Of a stretch of 55,190 nucleotides of DNA, positions 1,675 to 54,113 are shown in pieces. The translations under genes were made by a program, and so were the position numbers. The notes beneath the pieces were generated by a model. That model saw nothing but the letters and a program-made list of their open reading frames with translations, was not told the origin of the DNA and made no database searches. Origin of the DNA: an uncultured Staphylococcaceae bacterium (GTDB lineage Bacteria; Bacillota_I; Bacilli_A; RFN20; CAG-826); NCBI GenBank assembly GCA_964416025.1, contig CAYQCJ010000004.1, forward strand, positions 1 through 55,190, given 5' to 3'. Each line of letters begins with the position of its first letter. Position 1 is the first letter of the stretch.

Positions 1675-1712
1675 AATTTATCGAAAAACCCCTGCAAAGA
1701 CCCCTTCTTTTT
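1675..1712 (-). repeat. Dispersed G-tract repeat, copy A
   Basis: Minus strand AAAAAGAAGGGGTCTTTGCAGGGGTTTTTCGATAAATT; matches copies at 10093-10131 and 21350-21390. Confidence 0.7.
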
Positions 1713-1718
1713 ATAAAA

Positions 1719-2666: not shown

Positions 2667-2670
2667 ATCT

Positions 2671-5853: not shown

Positions 5854-5865
5854 ACTTGCTCCTTT

Positions 5866-8727: not shown

Positions 8728-8732
8728 GATAA

Positions 8733-31556: not shown

Positions 31557-32127
31557 CGTTATCTCCAATCATTTTTAAAAGCAAATTAGTGTTTTTGCAT
31601 TTGTATTTTGGCAGCAAAAATCTAAGATCTTTTTTCGAAAGTTTATTAAACTCATATATATCAATTCTTAAATCCACAAATAGCAAATTCTTTAGTATCT
31701 TAAGTGAAGATACAGGTTTTAAAGTATACAAAAAATCAGCTAAAGCTTTTTCTTTGCTTGCAATTTGAACTCCATTTTCTATAGTTGTAACACCAAAAGG
31801 AAAACATATTATTGGTATATTTTGATACCTATATAATCCGAAGGGTGTTTTGTATTGTTTTGATTTATGTTTTCCAGTAATTGCGCTAGTAATCAAATAT
31901 ACTCTTTCAGGAATTAAACCATAAAAAGACAAGGCATAATCAAAAGAAATGTAACTTGGGCGAATTATTGCATTAGCAATTTTTTTAATATCTTCATTTG
32001 TATTGTCTGAATACAAATTTCGGCAAATTCTAATTAAGCGACCGCTCAAAATTTCTGTTTCAATCTTACTATGTAAATTAGAATAATCTTTAAATTTATC
32101 ATTTAAATATTTAGTATTAAAAATCAC
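31537..32127 (-). CDS. abiEi: AbiEi-family antitoxin / transcriptional regulator
   Basis: LIRICRNLY, PSYISFDYALSFYGLIPE, IASKEKALAD; overlaps abiEii. Confidence 0.9.
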   Translation of the reverse strand: MIFNTKYLNDKFKDYSNLHSKIETEILSGRLIRICRNLYSDNTNEDIKKIANAIIRPSYISFDYALSFYGLIPERVYLITSAITGKHKSKQYKTPFGLYRYQNIPIICFPFGVTTIENGVQIASKEKALADFLYTLKPVSSLKILKNLLFVDLRIDIYEFNKLSKKDLRFLLPKYKCKNTNLLLKMIGDNDEQQIN

Positions 32128-32785: not shown

Positions 32786-34771
32786 TTAATGCATGTTCTC
32801 TGTATTTTTAATGTCATCTACAAATATAATTTTTTTATAAAATGTTTTTTCTAAATTGTTTTCGTTAGTTGCTGGTTTTCCATTGATACCAACTGTAATT
32901 TCAGTACTTACATTCTTAATAAATTCCTTTTTTGTTCCTGGATAAACCAACTTTTTAAAAGGATTAAAATTATTATTTTCAGGTAAATTGACACAAAGTG
33001 TTTTCAATGTTTTTGGTAAATAATACACACAAGACAAAAATTTATGTAATGAACGCATATCAATATTTTCGCAAGATTCACTAAATATAAACTTTTTAAG
33101 AGTTCTATTTTTGGTACTACAATATGCGCAATTAAAAGCAAACTCTTTTGGAACTTCGAAATCATGCATTTGTGGATTGAAACCAAAAATTATGTTTTTT
33201 TCTTTACTATTTACATCTATATTTTGAAATAAAACACCTTTAAAAGAACTAAAGCACTCATTTCCTTCTTCAACTTCATATGTCGTAACATATTTAAATA
33301 CATTTTTAAGAATTATCTTCGTTTGTTTAAATATTTTTAAAGGTGTTTTAATTTTATCCACTACTCCAACAACTTCATTTTTATCTTTCGTATAAATATA
33401 GTTATTGACTTGTATATATCGATTATTATCAATACTATGACCACAATAAATCTCAAAATCTTGATACCATCCCCATTTGTGTTTCAAATATTTTGAAAGA
33501 AATATTTTTCCGGTTGGAGAATAAAGACCTAAACGAGCCTCATCGCATAGAGTAACTTTATTTGGAAAAATACATTTTTTCTTATAATCTTTTAAGTTAT
33601 TATTTTTAATGCTTTTCGGAAGAACAGATACTAAATTATCGCAATAATTAAAAGAATTATAGTATGAAGATTTTAAGTTATTTGGTAAGAAAACAACCTC
33701 TAAATTGGAATTAAAGAATGCATATTGAGCGATGTATTGAACTGAATCAGGAACATTATAAACATTTTTATTTCTTCCAAAATAATAAAAAAGAGTTTTC
33801 ATGTCTTTTGTATATATAGCATCATCAAAAACTTTATATTTATTATTATTTTGCCTAATTTTTATGTTTGATATATTCACATACCCTTTATTTGTATAAT
33901 TTTGTTTTAAAAAATCTAAATTCTTTAAACTATTTGGAATAGTAACATCACTATTATTAAAGATAATATTTACTTTCTTATCAATATATTTAATATTTGA
34001 ATTGCTGAATTCGGTTGAATCTAAACATAAAGTAAATTTACTATTTCGTTTTTTATTTTGAGTTATAGCTTCTAAACTTTTAGGGATTTTACCTATCTTT
34101 ATTGTTGTTCCCAGATTTAAATTAATGGGGTTTACATATAGCACTTTAACATGATCATTTATTCTAATTTCGTTATTTTCAAAAATACAAAACATTTTTG
34201 TTTTATCTCTTGAATAAATTCCGTATTCATCCATACAAAGATATTTATTATCTGGATCAATAATAATATTTTCTCTATTAAGATACTTATTAGGTCCATC
34301 AAAAGTAATTGTTTTAATATTTTTATTTATAAATAAGACATCTATTTTTTCGTCCTGCAATTTATTTAAATTTATTTCTACCTTACTAATTGCTTTATAT
34401 CCTATTAACATTGGAATAATAATCGGTGATTTATTTGGGGTCAGATAGCATTTATTATTTTCGTATGTTGACGAGCAAAAGAAATCAGTTTCGTTATTTG
34501 TTAATTGTAAACGAGTTTGCATACGATAATAATTTAACTTCATATGATATTCATCATAAATTGACATTTTGGCAGTTAAATATTTAATAATTTTATTATT
34601 TTTATATATTAGGCACTTTACTATATAATCCCCAATTTCGCGTTTATTGTTGCCAATATATTTAAAGAAGTATTCAGAGACAGTCGGGCCTTTAATAAGA
34701 ATAGAGTGTTCCTTTCCATCATAAATAAATATCTTATTTACGAATGTGAAATTTTCAAAAACCATTGCCAA
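32786..34771 (-). CDS. Degenerate BspA-like LRR protein without signal peptide, 661 aa
   Basis: YNVPDSVQYIAQYAFFNSNLEVVFLPNNL, DDAIYTKDMKTLFYY; N-terminal YDGKEHSI..G segment; no hydrophobic leader. Confidence 0.65.
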   Translation of the reverse strand: MAMVFENFTFVNKIFIYDGKEHSILIKGPTVSEYFFKYIGNNKREIGDYIVKCLIYKNNKIIKYLTAKMSIYDEYHMKLNYYRMQTRLQLTNNETDFFCSSTYENNKCYLTPNKSPIIIPMLIGYKAISKVEINLNKLQDEKIDVLFINKNIKTITFDGPNKYLNRENIIIDPDNKYLCMDEYGIYSRDKTKMFCIFENNEIRINDHVKVLYVNPINLNLGTTIKIGKIPKSLEAITQNKKRNSKFTLCLDSTEFSNSNIKYIDKKVNIIFNNSDVTIPNSLKNLDFLKQNYTNKGYVNISNIKIRQNNNKYKVFDDAIYTKDMKTLFYYFGRNKNVYNVPDSVQYIAQYAFFNSNLEVVFLPNNLKSSYYNSFNYCDNLVSVLPKSIKNNNLKDYKKKCIFPNKVTLCDEARLGLYSPTGKIFLSKYLKHKWGWYQDFEIYCGHSIDNNRYIQVNNYIYTKDKNEVVGVVDKIKTPLKIFKQTKIILKNVFKYVTTYEVEEGNECFSSFKGVLFQNIDVNSKEKNIIFGFNPQMHDFEVPKEFAFNCAYCSTKNRTLKKFIFSESCENIDMRSLHKFLSCVYYLPKTLKTLCVNLPENNNFNPFKKLVYPGTKKEFIKNVSTEITVGINGKPATNENNLEKTFYKKIIFVDDIKNTENMH

Positions 34772-34784
34772 TCCCCCTTTAATT

Positions 34785-36023
34785 TTAATTTTTATCTAAA
34801 AATACATATTCTCCAACAGTTGGTTTATTATTTATTTTGTCAGTAAAAACATATAGTAAAGAACGGTCTTTTATCGTTTGACTAGAAACAAAATTGCTAC
34901 AACCATCTGTTAGAATAATCACTTTTTTAATATCATCTATACTTTCTTTTTCCATATACTCAAAAATACATTTATAAGATGTTCCTCCACGCCCCACACA
35001 TTTAATTTTGTTAATATTAAAATTATCATTAATTTCATAAAAACCATGTAAAACACAATCAAAGATTGCTAAGTAACCTTTTAAATGCCCATTATATTGT
35101 TCAATTGCACTTTTGACTTCGAAATAACACTTAGAAATATCAGCAATATCCATCGATCCAGAAGTATCAATCGCGAACAATATCCCAATAGGCACTTCTT
35201 CTTTTTCACTATAAGAAGGGAGAAGAATATCTGAATCTTGAAATCTTTTATCTGGATTTAAAAACGAATAATCATTAATCTCATCACTTATATAATTATT
35301 TAAAATAATGCGCCAATTCACAGGATTTTTGGTAATATTTTGCAGTTCTTCTTGTAAATTTAATGGTAAATTACCGCATTCTTTACTGTTCTTATATGCA
35401 CTATTTAATCTTTCATTAAAATAATCTTTGTAGTTGTTAATGTTCTTTCGAATCTCATCCCATAATGAATGGTCATCAATCTCTCTTTTTTGTAAATTGG
35501 CGAAATCGGCATTCATATACTTTGAAGATGATTCGTTTTTAATACTGAGCAAGACATCATATATTTGCTCACTAGACTTATTATCTGAAGGAATGTCTAT
35601 GCCTATACTTTTCAGCGAATACATCAGCGAATGTCCGTCAATAGATATAGAGGAACGATCATTAGAGTACATAGTCAATATAGTTTGGTTTACTTTTATA
35701 TCACAAGCGATATTGTATAGAAAATTGTTTTTACCAATACCTCTTTCTATATGATTAAAAGCGATATGCATTACTTCATGAAGCAAAACAAATTGAAGCT
35801 CATTTTCAGTTAATTTATCTAAAAATTTAGGATTAAAATATAGATTGATTCCGTTTGTTGCTGCTGTATCAATATTATCAGTCAATTCTTGTTTTAGAGA
35901 TAAAGCGATAATGCCAAAAAAACCAAAATTAATAATGAGTTTAGTGATTGCTTTAGAAAGCTTTTTAATAATTTTGCTGTTGTTAAAATCTTCATTCACA
36001 AAGAAACTCCTCAATTTGTTCAT
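34785..36023 (-). CDS. Putative metallopeptidase + vWA-domain protein (DUF2201-like)
   Basis: TAATNG, LHEVMHIAFNH (HExxH), IDTSGSM MIDAS, GRGGTSY, LTDG. Confidence 0.9.
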   Translation of the reverse strand: MNKLRSFFVNEDFNNSKIIKKLSKAITKLIINFGFFGIIALSLKQELTDNIDTAATNGINLYFNPKFLDKLTENELQFVLLHEVMHIAFNHIERGIGKNNFLYNIACDIKVNQTILTMYSNDRSSISIDGHSLMYSLKSIGIDIPSDNKSSEQIYDVLLSIKNESSSKYMNADFANLQKREIDDHSLWDEIRKNINNYKDYFNERLNSAYKNSKECGNLPLNLQEELQNITKNPVNWRIILNNYISDEINDYSFLNPDKRFQDSDILLPSYSEKEEVPIGILFAIDTSGSMDIADISKCYFEVKSAIEQYNGHLKGYLAIFDCVLHGFYEINDNFNINKIKCVGRGGTSYKCIFEYMEKESIDDIKKVIILTDGCSNFVSSQTIKDRSLLYVFTDKINNKPTVGEYVFLDKN

Positions 36024-37095
36024 AGTCTTCTTGGAATATTGGATTCAGGAGCAATTTATTGATAATGGCATCACACAACATTAAGTCTCTTATAATTTTA
36101 GCTTTAAATTCCACCGGTAAATCCCCAATAAATTGAAGTGCGTTATTAACTTTAAAATTATCTTCGATATTATTAATAATCGCAATCGTTATAGAACTTA
36201 CAAGAGCATATAAAGTAGAAACATCCTTTGGTATTTCAACTTTATCACCATTAAGGATGTCAGCTATACTTGGAAGATTTTTATAAATTTTAATATATGT
36301 TAGAAATTCAACATAGACACCAGTTGATATCAAACCTTTAATAAGCAAAGCATTACTATTAATATCTTTTTTACTATTATTCAATATGTTACTTACTATC
36401 TCCCAACTTCTAGGAGTAGCAAATACTAAAGAATCATTACTAGAATCAAAAGTATTAAGTAGTTCGGGCCTAAATGACAAAAAACCCAGCACTTTCTCAT
36501 TAATATTATGGTTAATAGCCCATTTTTTCCACGATTCAAAATCTATATCAACTTCAAAATGAAGAAATCTGTTGCTTAAAGCTTTGGGCATTTTATAGAC
36601 TACAGATTTATCAGTTAACCTATTACCAGCTGCAATAATTAAGCAATTCTCAGGAAGTTTATGCTCCCCAATTTGTCTATCGAGAGTAATTTGGTAAGCA
36701 GCACTTTGAACAGATTGCGGAGCTGAAGATATTTCGTCAAGGAATAATATATTGATGCAATCACTACTAGGATTCATATCAAATATTTTAGGTCTTAACC
36801 AAATAGCAAATTGTTTATTCACATCTGCAACAGGAATTCCTCTTAGATCAATAGGATTAAATAAGAGAAGTCTAACATCAGTAATTACTACTCTTTTTTT
36901 AGTGTTTTTTTTCAATAACCCCTGCAATTCCCAAACGCTTTGGCTTTTTCCAATGCCGGGTTGTCCCCATAACATTACAGCCGGAAAATCTTTTAAAGGA
37001 ATCCTTTCATTGATATATGTCGAATAAGTTTCGCTCAAAGTATCAATAATTGTACCAATCGATTCACACCCCATTTCTTTTAATTCTTTTGCCAT
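35992..37095 (-). CDS. MoxR-like AAA+ ATPase
   Basis: WGQPGIGKS, DLRGIP, LFLDEI, AAGNR, ALSNRF, TPRSW; start reassigned to MAKELK. Confidence 0.9.
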   Translation of the reverse strand: MAKELKEMGCESIGTIIDTLSETYSTYINERIPLKDFPAVMLWGQPGIGKSQSVWELQGLLKKNTKKRVVITDVRLLLFNPIDLRGIPVADVNKQFAIWLRPKIFDMNPSSDCINILFLDEISSAPQSVQSAAYQITLDRQIGEHKLPENCLIIAAGNRLTDKSVVYKMPKALSNRFLHFEVDIDFESWKKWAINHNINEKVLGFLSFRPELLNTFDSSNDSLVFATPRSWEIVSNILNNSKKDINSNALLIKGLISTGVYVEFLTYIKIYKNLPSIADILNGDKVEIPKDVSTLYALVSSITIAIINNIEDNFKVNNALQFIGDLPVEFKAKIIRDLMLCDAIINKLLLNPIFQEDYEQIEEFLCE

Positions 37096-37402
37096 TAATA
37101 TTTTTCTCTCTTTCTTAAGATAATAATAAAGATTAAAGTAAATTAATTTTTTTAGATTATTAATCAACCAACTAGGATAGTAATTTTCGCCTCAGTCTTC
37201 TCGGTGAGGCCTTCTGCCATATAACATATCATTCACCTATTTCTATGCAATTTTATACATTATTTTCGAATAACCCATATGGATTAGGTCATCAAATCTT
37301 TTAAATTATATGAACTTCCCATTATTGTTCTACACGCCCCGGGAAGTTTTTTTAGGGAGCAATTACGCTATTTAAATAAATTTTACCTCACCTTCATCTC
37401 AT

Positions 37403-38662
37403 CTATTTCTTTTCGTTTGCTAATGCGGTAGCTTCTTTTTGCATAACTGGTAAGCTTTCTTTTAACCCACCATTTCCAGAAGCGTAAAGCTCATTAGCGT
37501 ATTCTAATAACTCTTTTTTGTGTTGTCTCAGATAACGCATCACTTTTTTCTCTCTTTTATTGACTATTTTAAATATGCCAGTTTCACGTCTATTAAGCAT
37601 CTTTTGGCTAGCACATGAACTACCTTCATAGTAGTATTTTTTGCCATAAATCAGTGTGCGAGTTAATAGCCTATCAGCAAGGTCATGCGCCTTTATATTG
37701 TCGCTAAATGCACCAATTTCTATTTTTCCAAATATTATCTTTTCCGCACACTCACCACCTAGAATAATGTCAATCTTTTCGAATCTTTTTTCTACTGTGT
37801 CTTTCTTTTCATCAGTGTCGTAGATATTGGCAACACCACCGGTACTATTAAAGTTAGTCTTGAAACACTTAAAGTCTTTGCTATATTTCATACTCACTAG
37901 GTAATGCCCAGCTTCATGGATTGCTACATTATAATCCTTTTTGTTACTCGTATTAGACACATATTCATCTAGGACGATTCGAGAATACGACTTTTCTAAG
38001 TCTTCTAGACTTGCATTACTTTTGTGTAATAAATATGCATCGTTACATATTTGCTTGATATCAATGCAACTCACACCACAACAAATCAAGCTGATATATT
38101 TGATTTCATCTTCCTTTAGGTTGATACCAAGATTTGTTAGCATCTTCTTAAACAATAATCTTTTGGTATTCGTATCAGGCTTTTCGATAAAGATTCGACG
38201 ATCTATCCTGCCGTTTCTAAGTAAACTGCTTGGCAATTCTAATGGGTCTCGGTTTGTTGCTGCTATTGAGAAAACTATTCCACTATTGTTATACCCATCT
38301 AATTCAGTCTGTAAAGCTCTTAGACATCTTTGATCGTTAGTAATAAGATGATCGATTTCATCGATTATTACGACTGCTTTTTTGCATTTTCTCGCGGCGG
38401 CATACTTATTAGTTATTTCACCATAAGTATCTTGGGTATTTTCAATTACGAATGTTTCGCAATTGAAAGCTTTGGCAAATTCTCTCATAATAAGAGTTTT
38501 GCCGCACCCTTGGTCTCCATAGAGTAATAAACCTCTTGGGAGACTGATTTTTTTATTGTTCAATAATTCATCATCATTAAACCATTCACATATCGTCCCT
38601 AATTCCTCTTTGACATCATCGTATCCAATTACGGTGTCCAAAAAACTATTATCAAGTTTCAT
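37403..38662 (-). CDS. Membrane-less FtsH-like AAA+ ATPase / M41 metalloprotease, copy 1
   Basis: GDQGCGKT, IIDEID, LLRNGRIDR, HEAGH, GAFSD; no TM segment. Confidence 0.85.
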   Translation of the reverse strand: MKLDNSFLDTVIGYDDVKEELGTICEWFNDDELLNNKKISLPRGLLLYGDQGCGKTLIMREFAKAFNCETFVIENTQDTYGEITNKYAAARKCKKAVVIIDEIDHLITNDQRCLRALQTELDGYNNSGIVFSIAATNRDPLELPSSLLRNGRIDRRIFIEKPDTNTKRLLFKKMLTNLGINLKEDEIKYISLICCGVSCIDIKQICNDAYLLHKSNASLEDLEKSYSRIVLDEYVSNTSNKKDYNVAIHEAGHYLVSMKYSKDFKCFKTNFNSTGGVANIYDTDEKKDTVEKRFEKIDIILGGECAEKIIFGKIEIGAFSDNIKAHDLADRLLTRTLIYGKKYYYEGSSCASQKMLNRRETGIFKIVNKREKKVMRYLRQHKKELLEYANELYASGNGGLKESLPVMQKEATALANEKK

Positions 38663-38739
38663 ATTTCTTGACCTCCTTAAAAATAAATTATTATTTATAA
38701 ACTGTATTAAGAATAAATTAGCAAACCAATGACTACTAA

Positions 38740-39279
38740 CTAATCATCAGCTAAGAACCTTTTCTTTAATTTCGTTGCCTCCTCTTTAATATTGTCTTCT
38801 AACGTTACATAAGTTCCATCATCTTTGAAGAATTTGCCATAACTCTTTGGGCCATCACTTTTCATTTGAGCATAGTTATTTTTGACTCTAGCTTCACTTA
38901 AGAATTCTTTATCTTGACAGATATCAAGACACTTAGTCATAAGATCTGTAACTTTTACCGGGCCTTTATCACTAAGTAAAAAATAACTCTTCAATAAGCG
39001 ACTACATATAAAAGAATGATTCATAGACCATCTTCTAAGTCTTACGTATTCACGAGAAACAGTATAATCTGTAGGATTATCTAAAGTAGTGAATTTAAGA
39101 ACATTCGAACTCATACTGTTATCATTAGAAGCATATCTTCTCGCTTCCCTAAGAAAGACTCTAGAGATATAGGATTTAACTAAGTTGTCTAAGGCCTTAT
39201 CTTGTTCTTCATGAGCTAACTCTAATGCAAGTTTGAATTTACCATAAGTTTCTTCATCTAATTCTATACTGATGTTCAT
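38740..39279 (-). CDS. Hypothetical protein with an N-terminal ribbon-helix-helix-like DNA-binding segment
   Basis: MNISIELDEETYGKFKLAL...ALDNLVKSYI pattern; GGAG RBS. Confidence 0.55.
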   Translation of the reverse strand: MNISIELDEETYGKFKLALELAHEEQDKALDNLVKSYISRVFLREARRYASNDNSMSSNVLKFTTLDNPTDYTVSREYVRLRRWSMNHSFICSRLLKSYFLLSDKGPVKVTDLMTKCLDICQDKEFLSEARVKNNYAQMKSDGPKSYGKFFKDDGTYVTLEDNIKEEATKLKKRFLADD

Positions 39280-39629
39280 ACTAAGCTCCTTTATAATAAA
39301 TGAACCAACGACGTGAAATAAAATGATATTTAGTATTTTTATTTTTTAGTGGATATTTATTTTTAGTTTTTATATTATATGCACTGATTTTTGATAAATC
39401 AACAAATTTAACATTATTTCACATATTTTTTAAATTTATACCTTGATTTACATCATTTAGTTTTTAGTAATATTTAGTAATATATTAAATTTTAAAGTGA
39501 TTAGGCACCAATAGACTTTTTTATTTAAATAGAGTAGGTCTGCTTCTTATTTAAGTTTTCATTATCTTAAAATAAGTACTTTGAATGCGGTTTCTAGAAT
39601 CCACACTTTATCAATCAATAATTATTCAC

Positions 39630-39941
39630 TTAATTAACAAGGATTGACTATTGCTTTTCTTTTTCTATATCATAAGCAAGTTCTCATAAAATTCTTGGTT
39701 CAATAAATTCTTATTCATCGTAAACAAAACACAGAAAAATATTAAACTATAGAACTCATTATCATTTTTGCAATGTATATAGGAAAAATCACCAATTTCA
39801 TAATTAATTAAAAATCTATATTATGACTTAAATTAAATATATCAACACTGCTTTTTGTTGTTTCATAAAGTATTTGGTTTCTCCAAAATGGATCTTCTTC
39901 ATTTACAACACAACTCATACATTTAAATATCTCATATTCAT
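39630..39941 (-). pseudogene. Decayed small ORF directly downstream of the S-box-like leader
   Basis: Strong RBS TAAGGAGG then ATG, but the frame stops after 6-8 codons; protein-like text continues in shifted frames (MSCVVNEEDPFWRNQILYETTKSS..., LINYEIGDFSYIHCKNDNEFYSL..., EFIEPRIL*ELAYDIEKEK). Confidence 0.45.
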
Positions 39942-39968
39942 GCCTCCTTATTTCTTAACATAAAGAGG

Positions 39969-40000
39969 AATATAAAAGCCCATCGTAATGATGGGCTTTA
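39969..40000 (-). terminator. Riboswitch expression-platform terminator
   Basis: AAAGCCCATC-ATTAC-GATGGGCTTT-TATATT; its 5' arm CCCAUCAUU is complementary to the aptamer 3' end AAUGAUGGG. Confidence 0.85.
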
Positions 40001-40019
40001 TTTAATAATTTAAACATAT

Positions 40020-40106
40020 CCCATCATTCAAGCTTTAGCACTTTGCTACATTGTAGTAAGTTGCTGACGGATCATCGGGCTTGCCCCTAACCGTTCTCTT
40101 TATGGT
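40020..40106 (-). ncRNA. SAM-I (S-box)-like riboswitch aptamer lacking P4
   Basis: Manual fold: P1 CCAU/AUGG, AAAGAG junction, P2a/kink-turn (GAACGG/CCGUC, GAUGA), P2b GGG/CCC with loop CAAG pairing to CUUG (pseudoknot), P3 AGCAACU/AGUGCU. Confidence 0.75.
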
Positions 40107-40113
40107 AATTCTT

Positions 40114-40141
40114 AGTATAAATGTTAAATCTAGAATTTCAA
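40114..40141 (-). promoter_or_regulatory. Sigma-A-type promoter for the riboswitch leader
   Basis: TTGAAA-16 nt-TATACT placing +1 near 40107, at the start of P1. Confidence 0.65.
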
Positions 40142-40178
40142 CTTATTTTATTTTTAAAAACAAATATCGTTTATGTTT

Positions 40179-41597
40179 CTAATTTGTTTTTTTAGGATTA
40201 TTAAGATTATAAATCCTATTTTTAAATCTTTTTTGCGCATCGATATCGGCTTGATTTTGCATTTCACTAGTTAAAGCATTCATTGCTTTGATAAACTGAT
40301 TAAAATTATCTTTGTCTTGCTCATCAATTTCTGAATTCAAAGATTCAAGATTATCATAAACTACATTATATTTGATTAAATTATAATTCTCACCAAACAG
40401 ACTATTTTTAATTTCATCACGCATAATATCAGCTCTATAATTTGGGCAAAGAACAAAATAATGGGTACTTTTGTTTGATTCAAGTTTCTTTTTTTCAGTA
40501 ATTAAATAATATTTTGCTAGCTGATTAATATTAATGTTTTTTGTTCTGCAATTATTAAATTGTTCTTGAAAAACACGCCTTTGATTTTCGTCTTCAACAT
40601 TATTTATCTCTTTTTGTACTCCATCGCAAGTTCCGTTTAATAAGGACTCAACCTTATTTTCAATAACAATTATTTCTTTATCCGTTTCTATCAAAAGATC
40701 GATATTGTTTTTTTCTCTAGTCACCAATATATTGTTGAAATCTCTTCCCTCAAAATCTTTATTTAAACAAATTAAAAAATTATCAAAAACACTTTTTTCA
40801 TTTTTTATAAAATATGCAAGCATGTTAGAAAATGCTTTTTCTTGTTTTTCGTTTCCGGTGATTTTGAAAATATTCCACCATTTATCTTGTTCAAGTTCTG
40901 TTGGACATGATAATTTTTCTGCAAACTTTCCTTTATCCCAATTCGCTTGCTCATCAATAAAATCTAATAGCTCTTGGTTATTTTTACCATTTAAATATGA
41001 TTTTAAAGATTCTTGAGCAAGATTTATATTTATTTTAATACTGTTCTGCTTATCTTGAGTTTTAAAACCAATAATGAATTTTGGTTGGCTTATTTTATCA
41101 ACTGTACCATTTGGTTGGCTTATTTTATCAACTGTACCATTTGCTTTAAACGTTATAAAAATATTTGTCTCAGGTTTGGAAACTTCATTTTCGCTCATTA
41201 TATCACTTAAAAACTGACCACCATACTTAATACCTTCTTTTTTAATTTCTTTAATTTGAATACCGTTATTTGTCTCATTTTTTCCGAGTTTCTCACCAGT
41301 TATTGAACCAGGAAAAAATTCAACATTACGAGCAACGCCAAGAATTTGAAAGCGATCTTTATAATCTTTGTTTTTAACAACAAAAAGAACATCAATTTGG
41401 CAGTTACTATAGTCAATGCCCTTCAAATTCTTGTTATCTTTCTTAAAAAAACCATTCGCATTTAAATAAATATAATTTTCCTCATTATCCGCCTTATAAA
41501 AATTTATTATTTCAAATCCAATATTTTTTTTATTTAAAAGAAAACTTGAATTTTCAGGAAACAGCCTGTCTATAACAATAATTCTATCTTTGCTCAT
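40179..41597 (-). CDS. PD-(D/E)XK nuclease family protein (PDDEXK_4-like) with an N-terminal extension
   Basis: EKAFSNMLAYF, REKNNIDLLIE...IIVIENKV, QLAKY; start reassigned to MSKDR. Confidence 0.8.
   Translation of the reverse strand: MSKDRIIVIDRLFPENSSFLLNKKNIGFEIINFYKADNEENYIYLNANGFFKKDNKNLKGIDYSNCQIDVLFVVKNKDYKDRFQILGVARNVEFFPGSITGEKLGKNETNNGIQIKEIKKEGIKYGGQFLSDIMSENEVSKPETNIFITFKANGTVDKISQPNGTVDKISQPKFIIGFKTQDKQNSIKININLAQESLKSYLNGKNNQELLDFIDEQANWDKGKFAEKLSCPTELEQDKWWNIFKITGNEKQEKAFSNMLAYFIKNEKSVFDNFLICLNKDFEGRDFNNILVTREKNNIDLLIETDKEIIVIENKVESLLNGTCDGVQKEINNVEDENQRRVFQEQFNNCRTKNININQLAKYYLITEKKKLESNKSTHYFVLCPNYRADIMRDEIKNSLFGENYNLIKYNVVYDNLESLNSEIDEQDKDNFNQFIKAMNALTSEMQNQADIDAQKRFKNRIYNLNNPKKTN
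41081..41140. repeat. Exact in-frame 30-bp tandem duplication
   Basis: ttggttggcttattttatcaactgtaccat x2, encoding NGTVDKISQP twice. Confidence 0.95.
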
Positions 41598-41787
41598 AAT
41601 TAATAATTCCTTTCTCAGCAACAATTTATATGTAATCGTAAACTTTTATAAAAGAGTTTTTCTTTTAAAAATTCATAGTCACAATAATTCAATAATTTTA
41701 TCACCACCACATTTTTATCTATCAATCACAACATATCTTTTTTTATATTCTTCATGCCTTCCTATGTTGCTAATTATTATGTTGAAA

Positions 41788-42558
41788 CTAATCACAATCA
41801 ATATCAAAAACAAGCGTTTCAGAATTTTTTGAATGAAGAGTTTTTATTGAAAATACATTGTTTTCAACATGATTTACAACACTATTAAAAGCTTCATTGT
41901 TTTTTGAAGCAATATCTTTAAAGTCGCTCATAACAAAAAAATAAATTCCAAGATTCTGAGATAAACTAAATAAATTTTGAAGTTCTGTTCGTTGCGATTC
42001 AGACAATTCATTATTTAAGGACTCAAAGTTTTCAATCATAACAACAATAAAAGGCAATTTGTTTTTATTCTTTGAGTTAAATTCATCAAGAAATTTAGCA
42101 TCGCTCTCTTTTAACAGTTCTTCTCTTTCTTGTGCTAAAGATGTAAGTTTAGAAATACAAGCATTGGCTTCTTCTTTGGTTTCGATAACAAAAGTTTTTT
42201 CACTCTTATTTTTATACTTATTATTTTTTGAGAAAAGATAAAGATTAGTGTCGCCAAAAGTATCGCATCTAATTCCACTTTCATCAAATAATTGATCCAT
42301 AAGAATATTGAAAGCATCTTTTGAATCGGAACTAAAAAGAATTGGAGACAATATATTAATTTGACCGTAAGAGATAACTTTTCTTACATTGTTCTCAAAT
42401 ACGGATTTGTATAAAACAATAGGATAATAATTAGTATTTTGATAATTTTTTTGAAAATTTTCAAGTTCTCCTTTGAAAAAACTAGTAGCAAAGACGCCAT
42501 TTTTTGAATCATATTTTGTGATTGGTTTTGTATTAATCATTTTTCTCCTTCTACACAC
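41788..42558 (-). CDS. Degenerate FtsK/HerA-like P-loop fragment protein
   Basis: KLPFIVVMIENFESL...LSQNLGIYFFV resembles the FtsK Walker B region (LPYIVVVIDEFADL...ARAAGIHLI); no Walker A seen. Confidence 0.5.
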   Translation of the reverse strand: MCRRRKMINTKPITKYDSKNGVFATSFFKGELENFQKNYQNTNYYPIVLYKSVFENNVRKVISYGQINILSPILFSSDSKDAFNILMDQLFDESGIRCDTFGDTNLYLFSKNNKYKNKSEKTFVIETKEEANACISKLTSLAQEREELLKESDAKFLDEFNSKNKNKLPFIVVMIENFESLNNELSESQRTELQNLFSLSQNLGIYFFVMSDFKDIASKNNEAFNSVVNHVENNVFSIKTLHSKNSETLVFDIDCD

Positions 42559-42784
42559 AAAAGATAAATAAATTTATTTTTTGTGTTTTTATCATTATTA
42601 AATAAATAAGATTTAAAATCAAATCATATTAAAGTTTTTATGAAAACTAGAAATTACTAACATAAGCAATGTCCTCAGAAAATAAAAATAATAATGATAA
42701 AATATATATAACATACTTCGACATTTGTTGCTTATTCTTATTATCAAAATTATTGGTAATATTCAAATTCTATGAAATTACATT

Positions 42785-44029
42785 TTATATATTCCAATTC
42801 TCTGGAATATCTTTATAATCTATACTTCCTTTTTTATACAAAATATCAGCTAAAAAACACAACTCTGACTTATGTTTTTTCAGATATCTATAAGTTTGTT
42901 TACTCAGTTTATTTAATAAGATAGCTGTCTTTTTTCTTATTCGACGATTAAACTTAAAATCAACCAAATCAATGTCACTAGAATTAGGTGAGCCGCTTTT
43001 AAAATCGTCTAATTTATATATGCAAGTCCTAGAAATTAATCCGATGCACTCTTCATGAGCGGAAAATAAATCACGATACGAACCAACATCTTTAAATCCA
43101 AAAATTATTTTTTCTGCATTTAATCCCCCTAAACTAATCCTTATTTTATCTAATCCTCCTTCTATCGAATTTCTTTCGATCTTGCTATTTGCTATAGTCA
43201 CTCCTCCACAATCATCAAAATATGATTTATAAAACATTGCTGTGTCTTTTGCTTTTAAGGACATCAAGATATGCCCCGCTTCATGAATCGCTACTCTTTT
43301 ATCTTTATATTTTGTTGGATCAGAAAATGAGTTATTAGCTATCATATCCATCGATTTGTTTATATCTTGATTACTTAATTTTTTGCCATTTCTTAAATAA
43401 GCATCATTTATAATATTTCTTAAAATAACTGGATTTTTTCCACTTAATAAATTAGAAAGAATATCCAAATCAATATTTGTCTTATCGACACAAAATTCAT
43501 CCAAATATTTATTTAAGAAATAATTGGTTTTCTCACTATCTAACCTAGAAAAACAAAATGTGCGATCAATTCGGCCATTTCTTCTTAATTCTGCAGGTAT
43601 TAGAGTGATATAATTAGCTGCTAATAATACTAATATATGACCACTTTTATCAATACCATCAAGTTCGCTTTTTAATAATCTATTAATCTCTTCTTTCTTA
43701 CCTCCAGCCATTAAACTATCTAATTCATCTATAGCGATAATTGCTCCTATATCCTTCCTGGCTTTTTTAAATATGGTGCTAATCTCTTTTAAAATGTTGT
43801 TATCACTTCCATTCAATATGTAATGAGGATAATCAAATTCCTTGATATATTCCCTAATTATTAGGGTTTTACCACATCCAGCCTCACCATAAAATAAAAT
43901 ACCTTTTGGTATATTAACATCCTTATTGTTATAAATATCTGGATCTATAAACCAATCATGAATCACTTTTAATTCTTTCTTAATTTCATAGTTCCCATAC
44001 ACGTTTTTTAAAAACTCATCTTCACTCAT
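42785..44029 (-). CDS. Membrane-less FtsH-like AAA+ ATPase / M41 metalloprotease, copy 2
   Basis: GEAGCGKT, IAIDELD, LRRNGRIDR, HEAGH, GSYRD; start reassigned to MSEDEF; no TM segment. Confidence 0.85.
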   Translation of the reverse strand: MSEDEFLKNVYGNYEIKKELKVIHDWFIDPDIYNNKDVNIPKGILFYGEAGCGKTLIIREYIKEFDYPHYILNGSDNNILKEISTIFKKARKDIGAIIAIDELDSLMAGGKKEEINRLLKSELDGIDKSGHILVLLAANYITLIPAELRRNGRIDRTFCFSRLDSEKTNYFLNKYLDEFCVDKTNIDLDILSNLLSGKNPVILRNIINDAYLRNGKKLSNQDINKSMDMIANNSFSDPTKYKDKRVAIHEAGHILMSLKAKDTAMFYKSYFDDCGGVTIANSKIERNSIEGGLDKIRISLGGLNAEKIIFGFKDVGSYRDLFSAHEECIGLISRTCIYKLDDFKSGSPNSSDIDLVDFKFNRRIRKKTAILLNKLSKQTYRYLKKHKSELCFLADILYKKGSIDYKDIPENWNI

Positions 44030-44049: not shown

Positions 44050-44838
44050 TTAATTTAATAATAACCAACCATTTTTATAGACATGAATATCATCTCTATT
44101 TAAATCCACGATAAGCCAAGTTATATCTTTTATGCCTCTCATGTTTTTAAAAATATTAACGATATTTTCTATGCCTTTTTTCCACTCATTAACACTAGTT
44201 ACCCACTCTTTATGGTATTCCGTATGTGTATAATCATTAGCAAAACAAATATATACTAACTTAGCCTTAGCACCATTTCTTTTTAACATATTAACTAAAC
44301 ACAATCTGTTTGCTAATTGATAATAATCACTATCGATATATTCATCTGATCCTACATATTTTCTTAAAGATTCTTCGATGAGTAAAATCGAATCTATATT
44401 CGTCGCTAAACATGGCCCAAGCGATTCAGTTATATGGGATTTAGCTTCTATTACATAAATAGTTTTGCTCTCTCCAATACCAAATCCATCAAGTTTTGGA
44501 CCTCTTTCAGGCCAAAACCTACTCCAATCTATTTTGTTTTCTATAGCTTCAGATAAAATTTGAGCACTATATTCTTTAAATTCATCTTTAATAATTGGAG
44601 AGTAGATTTTTATTTCATCTTTAATGTGTTTTCTAAGGAAACCTCCATTTCCGATATTATGAAGATATTCATTAGTAAATATTTGTAGTTCAAATTGACT
44701 GCCCCTATCCGCTCTATAGTCTGATTCGTACACTTCATCATAAACATAACTAGTCTCATTGTGCATTTCTTCAGTAGCGATTTTCGTACCATCGCTATCA
44801 TTTCTAACACCTTCCTTGTTGTTATTTTTATAAAACAT
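44050..44838 (-). CDS. Putative PD-(D/E)XK-fold nuclease (conserved hypothetical)
   Basis: GSQ, FWPERGPKLDG...YVIEAKSHITE, YYQLANRL; AGGAGG RBS. Confidence 0.7.
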   Translation of the reverse strand: MFYKNNNKEGVRNDSDGTKIATEEMHNETSYVYDEVYESDYRADRGSQFELQIFTNEYLHNIGNGGFLRKHIKDEIKIYSPIIKDEFKEYSAQILSEAIENKIDWSRFWPERGPKLDGFGIGESKTIYVIEAKSHITESLGPCLATNIDSILLIEESLRKYVGSDEYIDSDYYQLANRLCLVNMLKRNGAKAKLVYICFANDYTHTEYHKEWVTSVNEWKKGIENIVNIFKNMRGIKDITWLIVDLNRDDIHVYKNGWLLLN

Positions 44839-44982: not shown

Positions 44983-45888
44983 TTAGTCTAATTTCTTTAG
45001 CTTTTGACTATAAAAACCAGCAAATTTTACCTCACAATTATTCATCTTTTGATTACAAGATTCTATAAAATCAATATAATCTTTAGACTCAACAATTTCC
45101 TTAGCCGATTCTAAATATTCGGATAAGCCTTGATTAAATATCTCTCCTCCGTTTATATGAGTAGGATCAAATATAAAGTAAATAAAGAATATTTTTTTAT
45201 ACTTTTTCTTTGAAAAATTGCTAATTATTCCCAATAAATGGCATATATTTTGTTTAATATCATATCGACAATTTTTAAATTTATTCGTGAATACACTTTG
45301 ATTCATATTTGTAAATACATCATCTATTGGTCCGTTTTCATAAAAATATTGTTCAGACAATTTATTTGTTGCATTTTTATATATTTCCTTCATTTTTGCT
45401 TCAATACAAATAGCATATTCTTCATTGTTTACACTTAAAACACAATCTAATTGGCTTGGTGGTCCTTTAATACCTTTAATTTTGTTTGAATACTCAAAAA
45501 TCGTTTCTATTTTATCTATCTTAATATTAGGAATGTTGTTATCTTCAAGAACCTGCTTCGCTAATTTTGATGCATTGTCTTTATTAGCTAACATTTCAAA
45601 AACAAACCTTGATGAACCAAATAATGGGGAATTGTGATTATAATTGAATTTCTCTATGGCTATTCCATTAAATATTAAGTTGGCTCTTTTAGCCCAGAGA
45701 TCAAAATTATCATCGCTTAAATATCCAAATAAATGTTTTGTCTTTCCGCTTTTTTGTTTATGAATCGTAACAATTTCATAACTTTCAGCTTCTAAAAAAG
45801 GGCTTTCGGTTATTGAATAAATTTTCTTTAAATAATTTAGCGAATTTTTCTGATAGATAAACTTTTGAAATTCCTTATCTAAATCCAT
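44983..45888 (-). CDS. Putative restriction-endonuclease-like protein (PGN_0703-like)
   Basis: SPLFGSS.F, FEY, PPSQLDCVL...ICIEAKMKE, DIKQNICHLLGI. Confidence 0.7.
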   Translation of the reverse strand: MDLDKEFQKFIYQKNSLNYLKKIYSITESPFLEAESYEIVTIHKQKSGKTKHLFGYLSDDNFDLWAKRANLIFNGIAIEKFNYNHNSPLFGSSRFVFEMLANKDNASKLAKQVLEDNNIPNIKIDKIETIFEYSNKIKGIKGPPSQLDCVLSVNNEEYAICIEAKMKEIYKNATNKLSEQYFYENGPIDDVFTNMNQSVFTNKFKNCRYDIKQNICHLLGIISNFSKKKYKKIFFIYFIFDPTHINGGEIFNQGLSEYLESAKEIVESKDYIDFIESCNQKMNNCEVKFAGFYSQKLKKLD

Positions 45889-46283
45889 TATTTTTCCTTC
45901 ATATAATAACTGGCACTACTTAAAACATATCTTTCTTCAAAAGGATATTTTTTTTGCATTGCTTTGTACTTTATATTAAATTTATCAGCTAAAATAAATT
46001 TAAATAGATAACCAAAATATGCTCCAATATATTGTTTTTTATTACGGTCATTAGCAACATCACTAGTAACAACATCTTTGTTCTTTCTAGTAAAATAATC
46101 TGATGGAGGTATAAAATAATTATCATTTAAAAATACCATTTCATCGATATTTTTCTCATCATCAATCCGCTCTAAAAACCTTATATAGATTGGATCATCT
46201 TCTCTTACTTTTTTACAATATTTAGATTCAAAATCTTCTTTATCGAAATACATATTACCATAGTTATACAACATTATTAGCAA
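45888..46283 (-). CDS. Hypothetical protein, 131 aa, translationally coupled (TAATG) to the downstream nuclease-like gene
   Basis: Open frame; stop overlaps the start at 45888. Confidence 0.65.
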   Translation of the reverse strand: MLIMLYNYGNMYFDKEDFESKYCKKVREDDPIYIRFLERIDDEKNIDEMVFLNDNYFIPPSDYFTRKNKDVVTSDVANDRNKKQYIGAYFGYLFKFILADKFNIKYKAMQKKYPFEERYVLSSASYYMKEK

Positions 46284-46361
46284 TATGTCAAATTTCCTTT
46301 TGATTTTAAATAATAAATTGCTATTTATAGTTTATAAAAATTCCTACAAATCAAGTTTACA

Positions 46362-47450
46362 TTAACTATCGGTTTTTAATTTTGTATTTTTATATTCATC
46401 AACAATTTTCTCTAATCCACAACCAAATACATTATAAAAATCACTTATATATTCTGTTATTGTATTTATTAGAGCTTCTTGGTTGGTAAATGTAAACTTA
46501 GTTTTTGCTTTAGCGATTTGTTTTTTGTTATAACCATTTATAAACATTTTGCTAAAATTTTTAATTTTCCAGCGAAGAGCATTTTCTTCTTCTTCAGTTA
46601 AGATTACTACGCTATCTTTACCATTTGTAGAATACCCACATTTTTCAATTAAGCATCCTGTTAAAACGATCCATCTAAAGCAAAAATTCAAAGAAAGTTT
46701 ATAATCTTTTATTTTAGAAAAATGAATTTGAACTGAGTAACCCGCATATCTACCATACGAACACCAAGAACCATTCCAATAATTCCAATCTTTCGATAAG
46801 CTATCCCAATCGTTTTTCTTAATAATAGCCAATTTATCGATTTCATTATCGCAAAAAGCAAACCAATTACAAATATCCCATTCATCAATTGGTTTAGTAG
46901 ATACAGTTGTTAAAGATTTGTATTTTAATTCAACATGCTCAATATAATCCAATAAAATATTATTTTTAATATTTTTAATATTTATTTTTGAAAAAAACTC
47001 ATAAATAGACTTAATGTCAAAAACAAACCAGCCATTTTTTTGAATAGTTGTTCTATCACTCTCCCACACAAAATTTAGTTTGTAAAAAACAAATTTAATT
47101 CTATTAGAGCAACATTTATCAGCAAAACTATTTGTGATATTATTAAAATATTTATTCGTTTGATTGAAACCTTCGTTGGCATCAACCTTATCTTCAATAA
47201 TTAAGATATATTTCTCACCATTTATCAATAACTCAGCCAATATGTCGGTATGTTTAAATTGTTTCCTTATCGATTCAATTTTCAAAGATTTTATATCATT
47301 TTTATAACCTAAAACTAATTTAATAAAAGCTCTACCAATACTTTTAACATCTTCATATTCGTTGTTATCATCTCCACTATTAGTAATCAACCAACACAAA
47401 AAAGCATCTTGTTCCAACTCTTTATTTGCATATTGAAATAAATTGGTCAT
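46362..47450 (-). CDS. PD-(D/E)XK nuclease family protein (PDDEXK_4-like)
   Basis: NLFQYANKELEQDAFLCWL, KQFKHTDIL...ILIIEDKV, QTNKY. Confidence 0.85.
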   Translation of the reverse strand: MTNLFQYANKELEQDAFLCWLITNSGDDNNEYEDVKSIGRAFIKLVLGYKNDIKSLKIESIRKQFKHTDILAELLINGEKYILIIEDKVDANEGFNQTNKYFNNITNSFADKCCSNRIKFVFYKLNFVWESDRTTIQKNGWFVFDIKSIYEFFSKINIKNIKNNILLDYIEHVELKYKSLTTVSTKPIDEWDICNWFAFCDNEIDKLAIIKKNDWDSLSKDWNYWNGSWCSYGRYAGYSVQIHFSKIKDYKLSLNFCFRWIVLTGCLIEKCGYSTNGKDSVVILTEEEENALRWKIKNFSKMFINGYNKKQIAKAKTKFTFTNQEALINTITEYISDFYNVFGCGLEKIVDEYKNTKLKTDS

Positions 47451-53529: not shown

Positions 53530-54112
53530 CTATTTAGCTTTCTTTTCTTCCAAAACATTTTCAACAAATAAATTAACTATGTCTGAATATGGGTCATCAT
53601 TTCCAATATTATTTTGCGAAATGGTATTTTTAATTGCTATTTCTCTTTTATTCTTTAATAAAGAAAATACATCCTTACTTTTCTTGTATTCAGGTATATT
53701 TTTTCTTAACTCAATTAATAATTGTGCTGAATTTAAGCTGTGTGAATGGCTTACAAAGTGATTTAAAAACCATAATTCAAAACAAGGATTAGAAAAAACG
53801 ATGGTTATATCTTTTGGAAGAAATTTCTTTATTTCTTTTATTTTAGCAACCTCAATTTTGTCATCATCACCATCAACAAAAATGAGTGTTTTATCCGTTT
53901 TTGTATTGTATCCATAATATTTTCTTTTTGTAGTTATTGCTTTGATAATATTTTCACAATTTGTATCGTTTGTAGGCAAAAAACATAATACTATAATTTT
54001 TATCAACCGGTTCAAAATGATTTAAATATATGTTCTCGGTTTTATTAAACTTACCTTCAAAAGATATTATTATCAAACTCCTTTGTTTAAACTTTTTGCC
54101 CACCTTCATCAT
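53530..54112 (-). pseudogene. rloB: RloB-family (AbiLii-like TOPRIM) gene split by a +1 frameshift
   Basis: Upstream frame from ATG 54112 gives ISFEGKFNKTENIYLNHF and switches at the T6 run 53978-53983 into the frame with FVDGD and SNPCFELWFLNHF. Confidence 0.8.
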
Positions 54113-54113
54113 C

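Follow-up and report, generated by a model that had tools for sequence, protein, structure and literature searches.

FtsH-Like AAA-M41 Proteases without Membrane Anchor or Pore Loop in a Variable Island of a Gut Bacterium

Two FtsH-Like Proteases in One Contig

The DNA considered here, which I will call the window, is a whole contig of 55,190 bp and ~28% GC (CAYQCJ010000004.1), from the chromosome of a low-GC gut bacterium of the Bacilli/Mollicutes-like kind. Nearly all of its genes lie on the minus strand, and two of them encode FtsH-like proteases, A (419 aa) and B (414 aa), in which one AAA ATPase module is joined to a zinc protease of family M41. A preliminary description of the window, made from the sequence alone, had placed two AAA-M41 open reading frames (ORFs) of ~415-420 aa at these positions on this strand, and both the location of their motifs and Pfam searches bear it out. 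FtsH is usually viewed as a membrane-anchored, single-copy, substrate-threading protease of quality control. The positions of A, B and the features around them are collected in Table 1.

Each protein matches the Pfam families AAA (PF00004; 73.5 bits for A and 69.9 for B, above the gathering score) and Peptidase_M41 (PF01434; 48.2 and 33.0 bits, with a cut-off of 29.9), and each has the full set of residues expected of that architecture. Walker A is GDQGCGKT in A (residues 49-56) and GEAGCGKT in B (48-55); Walker B is VVIIDEID in A (97-104, with the DE at 101-102) and IIAIDELD in B (97-104). Sensor-1 is intact in both (AATN 134-137 in A), as are the arginine fingers (R149 and R152 in A) within the second region of homology, LLRNGRIDR in A (147-155) and LRRNGRIDR in B (148-156). 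The zinc site HEAGH, an instance of HEXXH, occupies residues 249-253 in both proteins, and the Asp that provides the third ligand is found in GAFSD of A (317-321; D321) and GSYRD of B (316-320). Both genes have strong Shine-Dalgarno (SD) sequences, AAGGAGG 8 nt ahead of A and GAAGGA ~9 nt ahead of B. The length of B is counted from an ATG; a TTG at 44068 is also open.

The two proteins are 35% identical to each other. Residues 10-334 of A align to Aquifex FtsH (6gcn; E 1.5e-33), and both proteins start only ~10 residues before the AAA core. An AlphaFold2 (AF2) model computed on a 25-sequence family alignment has a mean predicted local distance difference test score (pLDDT) of 86.1 and resembles the cytosolic regions of AFG3L2 and FtsH (Foldseek TM-score 0.72-0.77). 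The absence of N-terminal transmembrane (TM) helices and of the periplasmic domain, claimed earlier, holds up: the most hydrophobic 19-mers reach Kyte-Doolittle values of only 1.28 and 1.47, as compared to more than 2 in canonical FtsH, and Pfam finds no match to the periplasmic FtsH_ext domain (PF06480) in either protein. These sequence features support the view that A and B are AAA-M41 proteins of the cytoplasm whose catalytic residues, for ATPase and protease alike, are intact.

By the same measures they are not FtsH. Against the FtsH equivalog TIGR01241 they score 134 and 119 bits (cut-off 600), against PRK10733 73.6 and 61.7 bits (cut-off 1008), and they fail three defining features of FtsH: the TM/periplasmic region, the pore loop, and the equivalog score.

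Table 1. Features of the window, and copies of the SAM-I leader in related loci.
Feature	Sequence	Position	Strand	Remarks
DUF2201_N metallopeptidase/VWA-like protein	window	34785-36023	minus	downstream of A
MoxR-like AAA_3 ATPase	window	35992-37167	minus	downstream of A
AAA-M41 protease A, TM-less, FtsH-like, 419 aa	window	37403-38662	minus	Pfam, motifs, alignment, AF2 model
179-aa partner gene (cluster c8)	window	38740-39279	minus	77 nt upstream of A
Expression platform of riboswitch	window	39939-39999	minus	terminator hairpin 39974-39999 with U-run; SD-sequestering hairpin; ATG 39939-39941
SAM-I (S-box) riboswitch aptamer, short-P4 variant	window	40018-40108	minus	RF00162; same strand as proteases
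481-aa PD-(D/E)XK-type protein	window	40179-41624	minus	IDLLIETD...IVIENK; partial PADLOC PDC-S26 matches
256-aa degenerate FtsK/EssC-like ATPase domain protein	window	41788-42558	minus	follows B
AAA-M41 protease B, TM-less, FtsH-like, 414 aa	window	42785-44029	minus	same motif set and pore-loop deletions as A
262-aa gene	window	44050-44838	minus	ends 20 nt before ATG of B (operonic); D117...E131-A-K133 motif
Three further genes (301, 131 and 362 aa)	window	44983-47450	minus	co-directional, upstream of B
362-aa PDDEXK_4 protein	window	46362-47450	minus	PF14281, 3.1e-6; PDC-S26 over residues 53-159, 3.5e-8
AbiEii nucleotidyltransferase toxin	window	30687-31568	minus	PF08843, 4.6e-29
RloB-like protein beside AAA_21 ATPase	window	53530-55124	minus	RloB 1.7e-16; contig end
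SAM-I leader	L092	584-678
SAM-I leader	L096	848-944
SAM-I leader, first copy	L097	6545-6643
SAM-I leader, second copy	L097	11535-11629
SAM-I leader	L100	12097-12191
SAM-I leader	L019	10320-10414

Loss of the Pore Loops and the Extent of the Clade

The preliminary description had noted that the FVG pore loop is missing, as it is, and took it to be replaced by other residues (IENTQDT in A, LNGSDNN in B). The alignment gives a different account: a six-residue stretch, MFVGVG, has been deleted at pore 1 in A, in B, and in every aligned TM-less relative, and the subclade of A and B has lost 12 further residues in the region of pore 2, after Walker B. In AAA+ proteases the aromatic residue of pore 1 is needed for substrate translocation, and so a deletion throughout the clade would mean that these enzymes do not thread or unfold their substrates. 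The loss of both loops argues against an FtsH-style machine for unfolding and degradation.

A word-indexed search produced about 30 TM-less relatives of 410-460 aa with 24-53% identity, among them P0002, which is 53% identical to A. They come, where hosts are named, from metagenome-assembled genomes (MAGs) of gut Bacilli, Erysipelotrichaceae, Anaeroplasmataceae, Bacteroidaceae, and Lachnospiraceae. A profile search that was exhaustive over 1.84 billion representatives then gave a better idea of numbers. Among the best 150 matches listed, all above 414 bits, 75 are short, single-domain, TM-less proteins, which amounts to at least 75 clusters at 50% identity. Walker A is present in 75/75 of these representatives and HExGH in 74/75; a TM-like segment and a pore loop of the MFVG type ([ML][FYW]VG) are each found in 0/75. 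Walker B ends in DD (hhhhDD) instead of DE in 71/75, which suggests slow or switch-like ATPases in most of the clade, while the subclade of A and B retains DE. The long proteins among the top matches (740-2100 aa) were considered as possible fusions and rejected: they are FtsH/CDC48-like, either canonical or multi-AAA, and their scores are totals over several domains. Two proteins from Metamycoplasmataceae (L062, L065) that looked TM-less were also set aside, since decoding of TGA as Trp would truncate their ORFs under table 11.

In the 25-sequence alignment the invariant positions are the glycines and lysine of the P-loop, the Walker B Asp, R149/G151/R152, H249/E250/G252/H253, and D321 (numbered as in A), and a neighbor-joining tree puts all the TM-less proteins in one clade, separate from canonical FtsH. 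These observations bear on the simplest alternative, that A and B are decaying or functionless duplicates of a housekeeping ftsH. The low equivalog scores and the missing N-terminal and pore regions could be read that way, but the ORFs are intact and well provided with ribosome binding sites, the catalytic residues are invariant across a clade whose members are only 21-53% identical, the same deletions recur in all those clusters, the clade is monophyletic, and the fold is predicted with confidence. I give decay next to no chance. By these sequence comparisons, A and B belong to a large, widespread, unnamed, monophyletic clade of TM-less proteins, and the earlier description of them as cytoplasmic proteases that keep the active-site motifs, not decaying copies, agrees with the conservation seen throughout that clade.

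Searches elsewhere turned up little. In IMG/VR there was no close relative of the proteases, only giant-virus FtsH at 25-31% identity, and PLSDB plasmids contained only canonical FtsH at no more than 31% identity. A literature search on M41/FtsH-like defence systems found no description of the clade or of its link to the S-box leader described below.

Gene Neighborhoods of the Clade

To judge the company that the proteases keep, 29 non-redundant TM-less loci (given L numbers) were compared to 65 canonical FtsH loci taken from the same scans. Recurrent clusters of neighboring proteins (c numbers) were made into profiles and searched for within 7 kb on either side, with p values from Fisher's test. 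WYL-type regulators were found in 12/29 TM-less loci and 0/65 canonical loci (p = 1e-7), or 15/29 and 0/65 if the distant WYL relative c5 is counted (p = 8e-10); they stand within a few genes of the protease, and in both subclades. ADP-ribosylglycohydrolases (6/29 vs 0/65, p = 6e-4) and PDDEXK_4-type nucleases (4/29 vs 0/65, p = 0.008) are likewise confined to the TM-less loci in this comparison. A count by Pfam and PADLOC over three genes on each side gave WYL in 6-7 members, ADP_ribosyl_GH in 5, and HAD_SAK_2 in 3, together with matches to components of DRT, PDC-S06, UzuA, AriA, PtuA, and MADS. In all, 230 PADLOC families were matched in these intervals, as compared to 59 in the controls. 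The neighborhoods of TM-less homologues, to which the preliminary description had looked for a connection with defence, are in this way enriched for WYL, PDDEXK_4, and PADLOC families relative to canonical FtsH loci.

Nearly all 31 protease genes tabulated are tightly packed with genes of the same direction, and those genes vary from locus to locus. Partners that are closely coupled include PDDEXK_4 nucleases (L101, L218), Cas4 with DUF2779 (L013), an AAA_13 ATPase (L012), a UvrD helicase (L085), and an SPFH protein (L095). Some settings speak of mobile or defence DNA: a type I restriction-modification (R-M) system in L007, a TerY-P-like set of VWA, PP2C, and kinase genes with transposases in L002, and an integrase with a resolvase in L217. 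A 106-aa gene downstream of the protease in L007, L009, L022, and L218 was considered as a shared partner and rejected, the coincidence being one of length between unrelated proteins.

A subclade of ~470-aa AAA-M41 proteins has an operon of its own, conserved in L096, L097, L100, L019, and L022/L105 (for example, L097 7415-12489). It contains HAD_SAK_2 (with an FtsK_gamma-like part), an ADP-ribosylglycohydrolase, c16, and c7, to which L022/L105 add a small FtsK/SpoIIIE ATPase, and looks like a conflict or repair system related to ADP-ribose.

A SAM-I Riboswitch Leader

Between the two proteases lies a riboswitch aptamer of the S-adenosylmethionine (SAM) class I, or S-box, type. It scores 45.7 bits with Rfam RF00162, just over the gathering score of 44.4. 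At that threshold Rfam finds the same variant in L092, L096, and L097, and a covariance model built from the four copies (to which the window aptamer scores 111.6 bits) finds 7 copies in 6 TM-less loci, out of 533 kb searched, and 0 in the 1.59 Mb of 95 canonical FtsH loci. Under the Rfam model the three additional copies fall just below threshold, at 37-41 bits. All 7 have the same orientation as the protease gene. Taken over all seven, pairing holds in 97.7% of base-pair cells, 7 pairs show compensatory double changes, and 0/500 shuffles reach the observed covariation score. Gathering score, covarying helices, and a terminator platform together identify the window element, on sequence grounds, as SAM-I.

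The SD sequence of the leader (39943-39949) lies inside the sequestering hairpin. The ATG that follows opens only an 8-codon ORF, after which comes a 36-aa ORF (39808-39918), probably the remnant of a decayed gene similar to c34, with which it shares a PFWR motif (the similarity is not significant). The next intact gene, that of the 179-aa protein, is 734 nt from the riboswitch.

In other loci the leader is better connected. It directly heads a protease operon twice, in L096 (119 nt before c13, c14, AAA-M41, and ADP-ribosylglycohydrolase) and in L097 (120 nt before a 208-aa gene, AAA-M41, HAD_SAK_2, and ADP-ribosylglycohydrolase). In L092 it heads a run of eight genes that ends with c5, c8, and AAA-M41. 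The second copy in L097 precedes c7, that in L100 precedes c34 and c7, and that in L019 precedes c34, MoxR, c26, and DUF2201. The copies in the window, L019, L100, and the second of L097 are conserved, terminator and SD hairpin included, as far as the SD sequence and diverge beyond it, so that the leader behaves, to judge from these alignments, as a portable regulatory cassette.

Two observations may be added. The first gene after the riboswitch in L096, c13 (~325 aa; L096 1063-2031, L100 6810-7787, L019 182-1180), has a HELGH motif of the zincin type and no Pfam match, and would be a putative second metallopeptidase in an AAA-M41 operon. A further copy of the leader, in L222 from IMG/VR (13132-13170, minus strand), is followed by a c34-like gene of 115 aa, a 78-aa TM protein, and two C5 DNA methyltransferases (FxGxGG/PCQ/ENV), in a run that continues to ~5950 with genes recognized by motif as McrB-like and McrC-like. 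Here a leader of the SAM-sensing type stands in front of R-M genes that use SAM.

The leader invites an explanation that has nothing to do with immunity. In amino-acid-auxotrophic gut Bacilli/Mollicutes-like bacteria, the proteases could belong to an extended S-box regulon, with a fall in SAM inducing protein recycling or remodeling of the proteome and the location in islands incidental. Such a role fits the placing of the leader (immediately ahead of the AAA-M41 operons of L096 and L097, and before cassette A, described below), its absence from control loci, the presence of metK after the MoxR/DUF2201 block in L004, and the multi-copy FtsH families of related phytoplasmas (PMC6981957). It fits less well with enzymes that have lost both pore loops, which makes bulk protein degradation unlikely, and with co-regulated neighbors that are WYL regulators, nucleases, ADP-ribosylglycohydrolase, HAD_SAK_2, FtsK-like ATPases, and C5 methyltransferases with McrBC rather than genes of Met or Cys. 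The patchy, hypervariable distribution, with integrases and transposases nearby, also speaks against it. I consider proteolysis in the service of SAM economy unlikely.

One System or Two Cassettes

The preliminary description saw the two proteases as flanking nuclease genes and took the whole as one module. The former is true in part. One PD-(D/E)XK-type gene, that of the 481-aa protein, does lie between A and B, but so do the 179-aa gene, which is not a nuclease, ~900 nt of non-coding DNA, and the FtsK-like gene, and the other PD-(D/E)XK-like genes (the 262-aa and 362-aa genes) are upstream of B. The ~900 nt between the 481-aa and 179-aa genes have no real ORFs and hold the riboswitch with its terminator.

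Cassette A. The gene just upstream of A, that of the 179-aa protein (c8), is found again, at 160-179 aa, in L001 and L092, where it immediately precedes the genes of the closest AAA-M41 relatives; c8 and the protease therefore make up a conserved unit, one that is seen where B and the nucleases are absent. The 179-aa protein has no match in Pfam, PHROG, NCBIfam, or PDB (a profile search of PDB included), its single-sequence AF2 model is unusable (pLDDT 41.7), and homologue searches with it and with the 262-aa partner of B returned essentially nothing. By eye only, its N-terminus looks like a ribbon-helix-helix. Downstream of A is a MoxR-like gene followed by DUF2201, a pair that also accompanies AAA-M41 in L004 and L019; L221 has a different pair, AAA_5 and VWA, near its protease. 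A protein with repeats of the LRR_5 type is encoded directly after the pair in the window (32786-34771, minus strand), and LRR_5 genes occur in four AAA-M41 loci as well.

This arrangement suggests another reading, in which the protease acts as a switch rather than an effector: on receipt of a signal it would cleave a repressor, c8 or a WYL protein, and derepress the island. ImmA/ImmR (ImmA being of the ImmA/IrrE kind) and CapP/CapH are precedents. The placement of c8, with its ribbon-helix-helix-like N-terminus, directly upstream of the protease in the window, L001, and L092 is as expected, WYL-type regulators are near the protease in 12-15/29 loci, and an architecture that does not thread is suited to cleavage at a specific site. 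Against this, DNA binding by c8 is putative, the protein having no match in Pfam or PDB and no usable model, many loci have neither c8 nor WYL beside the protease, and WYL regulators respond to ligands without proteolysis. I would put regulator cleavage, as an account of the clade, at distinctly less than likely, in the range of a long shot.

Cassette B. The 262-aa gene, operonic with B, is assigned to PD-(D/E)XK by motif only. Comparison by hhalign of the 262-aa pair with PDDEXK_4-type proteins found no relation, and the sole detectable homologue (in L216) is not beside an AAA-M41 gene. On the other side of B, the 256-aa protein looks like the C-terminal half of an ATPase domain of the FtsK/EssC kind, with a degenerate Walker B region (VVMIENFE, with IEN in place of DE) and is weakly similar to small FtsK/SpoIIIE ATPases in the AAA-M41 loci L009, L022, and L105. 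The 481-aa protein matches PDC-S26 over residues 246-327 only (2e-8). It also contains, at residues ~163-182, a perfect tandem duplication of 10 aa (NGTVDKISQP twice), and the 301-aa protein further upstream shows by eye a D...EAK motif. Sequence searches of PDB with four uncharacterized neighboring proteins found nothing. A coupling of protease to PD-(D/E)XK genes, another of the earlier claims, is visible in three independent loci (L101, L218, L013) and in the 262-aa gene that ends 20 nt ahead of B, but the linkage to the 262-aa gene is not conserved.

In 4 of ~29 loci (the window, L012, L015, and L034) a second AAA-M41 copy is present within 10 kb of the first. This recurrence, the abundance of PD-(D/E)XK genes here, and the operonic 262-aa gene are what may be said for a single integrated defence system, made up of both paralogues with the intervening and surrounding genes, the neighboring PD-(D/E)XK proteins being activated or degraded by the proteases. 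The riboswitch with its terminator and the non-coding DNA divide the region, however, cassette A recurs without B or nucleases, the paired copies in L012, L015, and L034 are of different subclades with differing genes between them, and the 262-aa partner of B is unlinked to AAA-M41 elsewhere. One system is accordingly a very unlikely reading, and the earlier single module with two proteases is not supported. Because of the riboswitch/terminator gap, the recurrence of A alone, and the mixed subclades of the pairs, A and B are probably two independent cassettes accumulated in one island, so far as genome comparison can tell.

ROOL RNA (RF03087) was observed at two of the paired loci, in L012 between the two AAA-M41 copies (12991-13540, minus strand, 201 bits) and in L034 immediately upstream of AAA-M41 (1387-1956, plus strand, 195 bits).

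The Island

The left part of the window is ordinary chromosome, with a Fe-ADH family alcohol dehydrogenase, ABC transporters, and BspA-type leucine-rich repeat (LRR) proteins according to Pfam, and MiaB/RimO-like and MalQ-like genes and lipobox-bearing surface proteins recognized from translations only. Some of the surface proteins are very large (1060, 953, and 1475 aa; 1719-9551 and 24819-29246, minus strand), with BspA-type LRR_5 and Big_2 domains and, in some, signal sequences of the lipoprotein type. From ~29 kb onward the contig is a succession of accessory genes. Among them are the AbiEii toxin gene, overlapped upstream by a 196-aa gene that is probably its AbiEi-type partner (the pair spans 30687-32127, minus strand), several PD-(D/E)XK-type genes, and at the contig end RloB with AAA_21, a candidate two-gene defence system of the OLD/Abi type. 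AbiEii, RloB with AAA_21, and the PDC-S26-like genes support, by their similarities, the view of the region as a variable, conflict-type (defence) island.

PADLOC names no system for A or B, its only matches to them being the partial ones to IetA. The earlier association with defence stands as regards the genes of the island and the enrichment of neighbors relative to canonical FtsH; for such a system, PADLOC, NCBIfam, and the literature searched gave no named entry.

Proposed Function

What I propose has parts of unequal strength. That A and B are functional members of a TM-less clade associated with conflict islands I would put at a probability of roughly 0.85. That they act as regulated proteases in defence against phage or other mobile genetic elements is a tentative proposal, to which I give somewhat less than an even chance, and that the particular step is activation of an adjacent nuclease is unlikely.

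The proposed enzymes would assemble as FtsH does and work as nucleotide-gated, non-processive proteases. Binding and hydrolysis of ATP would gate assembly or conformation, and cleavage would take place at an exposed site in a specific partner or invader protein, in place of bulk unfolding and degradation. The likeliest substrates would be products of the variable genes that adjoin the protease (PD-(D/E)XK nucleases, small proteins that look like DNA-binding proteins, WYL regulators) or else a phage protein, and cleavage would switch on an effector or an operon. The genes of cassette A (the 179-aa gene, A, MoxR, and DUF2201/VWA) stand behind a complete S-box leader, and since in related loci the protease operon comes directly after the same leader, some of these genes, at least, are probably expressed in response to a fall in SAM.

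Carried further, the proposal becomes one of immunity gated by SAM. The portable S-box variant would hold island modules off while SAM is plentiful and free them on a collapse of SAM, such as a phage SAM lyase might bring about in attacking the methylation-dependent defences of the host. The modules would include soluble, pore-less AAA-M41 proteases together with the nucleases or regulators that partner them, blocks of MoxR/DUF2201, and C5 methyltransferases with McrBC, and the protease would serve as an ATP-gated, site-specific activator of neighboring effectors. This extension I regard as speculative and quite unlikely.

Several considerations weigh against a role in defence. No family in NCBIfam, PHROG, or PADLOC names A or B, apart from the partial IetA matches, and no one partner gene is shared by the whole clade, so that its members might act alone or in housekeeping. 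WYL genes are absent from the window itself. The neighbor profiles derive from the very loci that they were used to test, and these loci, contigs of MAGs or metagenomes from related gut taxa, are not fully independent of one another, although the contrast with the control loci is stark despite such caveats. S-box leaders classically mark the metabolism of methionine and SAM, not immunity, and a literature search found no link of SAM riboswitches to anti-phage defence. With the ORF behind the riboswitch decayed and a gap of 734 nt, control of protease A by the riboswitch in the window is only putative. For every member of the clade, the case is one made from sequence data.

What makes the clade worth attention is its large number of members without anchor and threading loops that nonetheless keep the chemistry of ATPase and protease, in hypervariable islands beside WYL regulators, nucleases, and ADP-ribose-related enzymes. 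If they are components of immunity, an ATP-dependent metalloprotease would join the proteolytic immune switches now recognized (caspase-like, trypsin-like, Lon-SAVED, IetAS). The recurrent S-box leader before protease operons was unexpected and makes the SAM pool, as a signal of infection or stress, a testable idea.

Comparison with Known Systems

The closest known relatives of A and B are FtsH/HflB (MEROPS M41; TIGR01241), AFG3L2, and YME1. All have one classical AAA module fused to an M41 zinc protease (HEXXH...D) in the same fold, and FtsH shares with A and B the Walker A and B motifs, sensor-1, and arginine fingers. A and B differ in having no N-terminal TM helices, periplasmic domain, or pore-1 MFVG, in the deletion of the pore-2 segment in their subclade, and in being accessory, multi-copy, and island-borne, where FtsH is a single-copy housekeeping protein. 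In phytoplasmas several diverged ftsH paralogues are present per genome, some linked to mobile units, and all eight FtsH of the Flavescence doree phytoplasma keep both the anchor (two TM segments, or a signal peptide and one) and the pore signature (PMC6981957). Multiple diverged copies in low-GC Mollicutes are what the two cases have in common; retention of anchor and pore signature in the phytoplasmas is what separates them.

IetAS combines an AAA ATPase (IetA) with a subtilase (IetS); it is a plasmid toxin-antitoxin system, with the protease as toxin and the AAA protein as antitoxin, and also an anti-phage system whose anti-phage mechanism is unknown (PMC13069673). The likeness is one of concept only, a classical-clade AAA ATPase with a protease in a setting of defence or toxin-antitoxin. 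The PADLOC profile of IetA matches A and B weakly and partially (1.4e-15 and 1e-8), and NF042959 (IteA_antiphage, the IetA family) gives 48.6 and 27.7 bits with a cut-off of 510. A and B have ATPase and protease in one polypeptide, the protease is an M41 metalloprotease and not a serine protease, and Pfam gave no family for any of the proteins that adjoin them, so that an IetS-type subtilase is not evident there.

Tuck et al. (2026; PMC12799240) described pairs of protease and pro-nuclease in Hachiman, AVAST, and canu, in which proteolysis unmasks the nuclease. These resemble the present loci in the welding of a protease gene to a nuclease gene in immune loci and provide a tested precedent for the idea that a protease activates a nuclease. 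Their proteases are trypsin-like or caspases and their nucleases of the metallo-β-lactamase (MBL) fold, whereas here an ATP-dependent M41 protease has PD-(D/E)XK-type or uncharacterized partners, and the linkage of protease to nuclease is limited to ~4-6/29 loci.

Kaur et al. (2020; PMC7159879) described FtsH-type MoxR-vWA ternary systems in multicellular actinobacteria, deltaproteobacteria, and planctomycetes, the third component of which lacks M41 and carries a pair of FtsH-type AAA domains, the N-terminal of them inactive. As there, the conflict-type loci considered here place an FtsH-type AAA protein beside genes for MoxR and VWA proteins; in the window this is true of cassette A only, and elsewhere of L004, L019, and L221. 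The proteins here differ in having a single AAA domain with an M41 domain, active-site residues intact, and in coming from gut Bacilli and Bacteroidales.

Finally, the leader shares with the classical S-box regulon its aptamer, its terminator, and the logic of anti-termination. It differs in being a short-P4 variant with an extra hairpin that sequesters the SD sequence, and in the genes that it heads: operons of AAA-M41, MoxR/DUF2201, c34-like genes, and, in L222, C5 methyltransferases with McrBC, in place of the genes of Met, Cys, and SAM.

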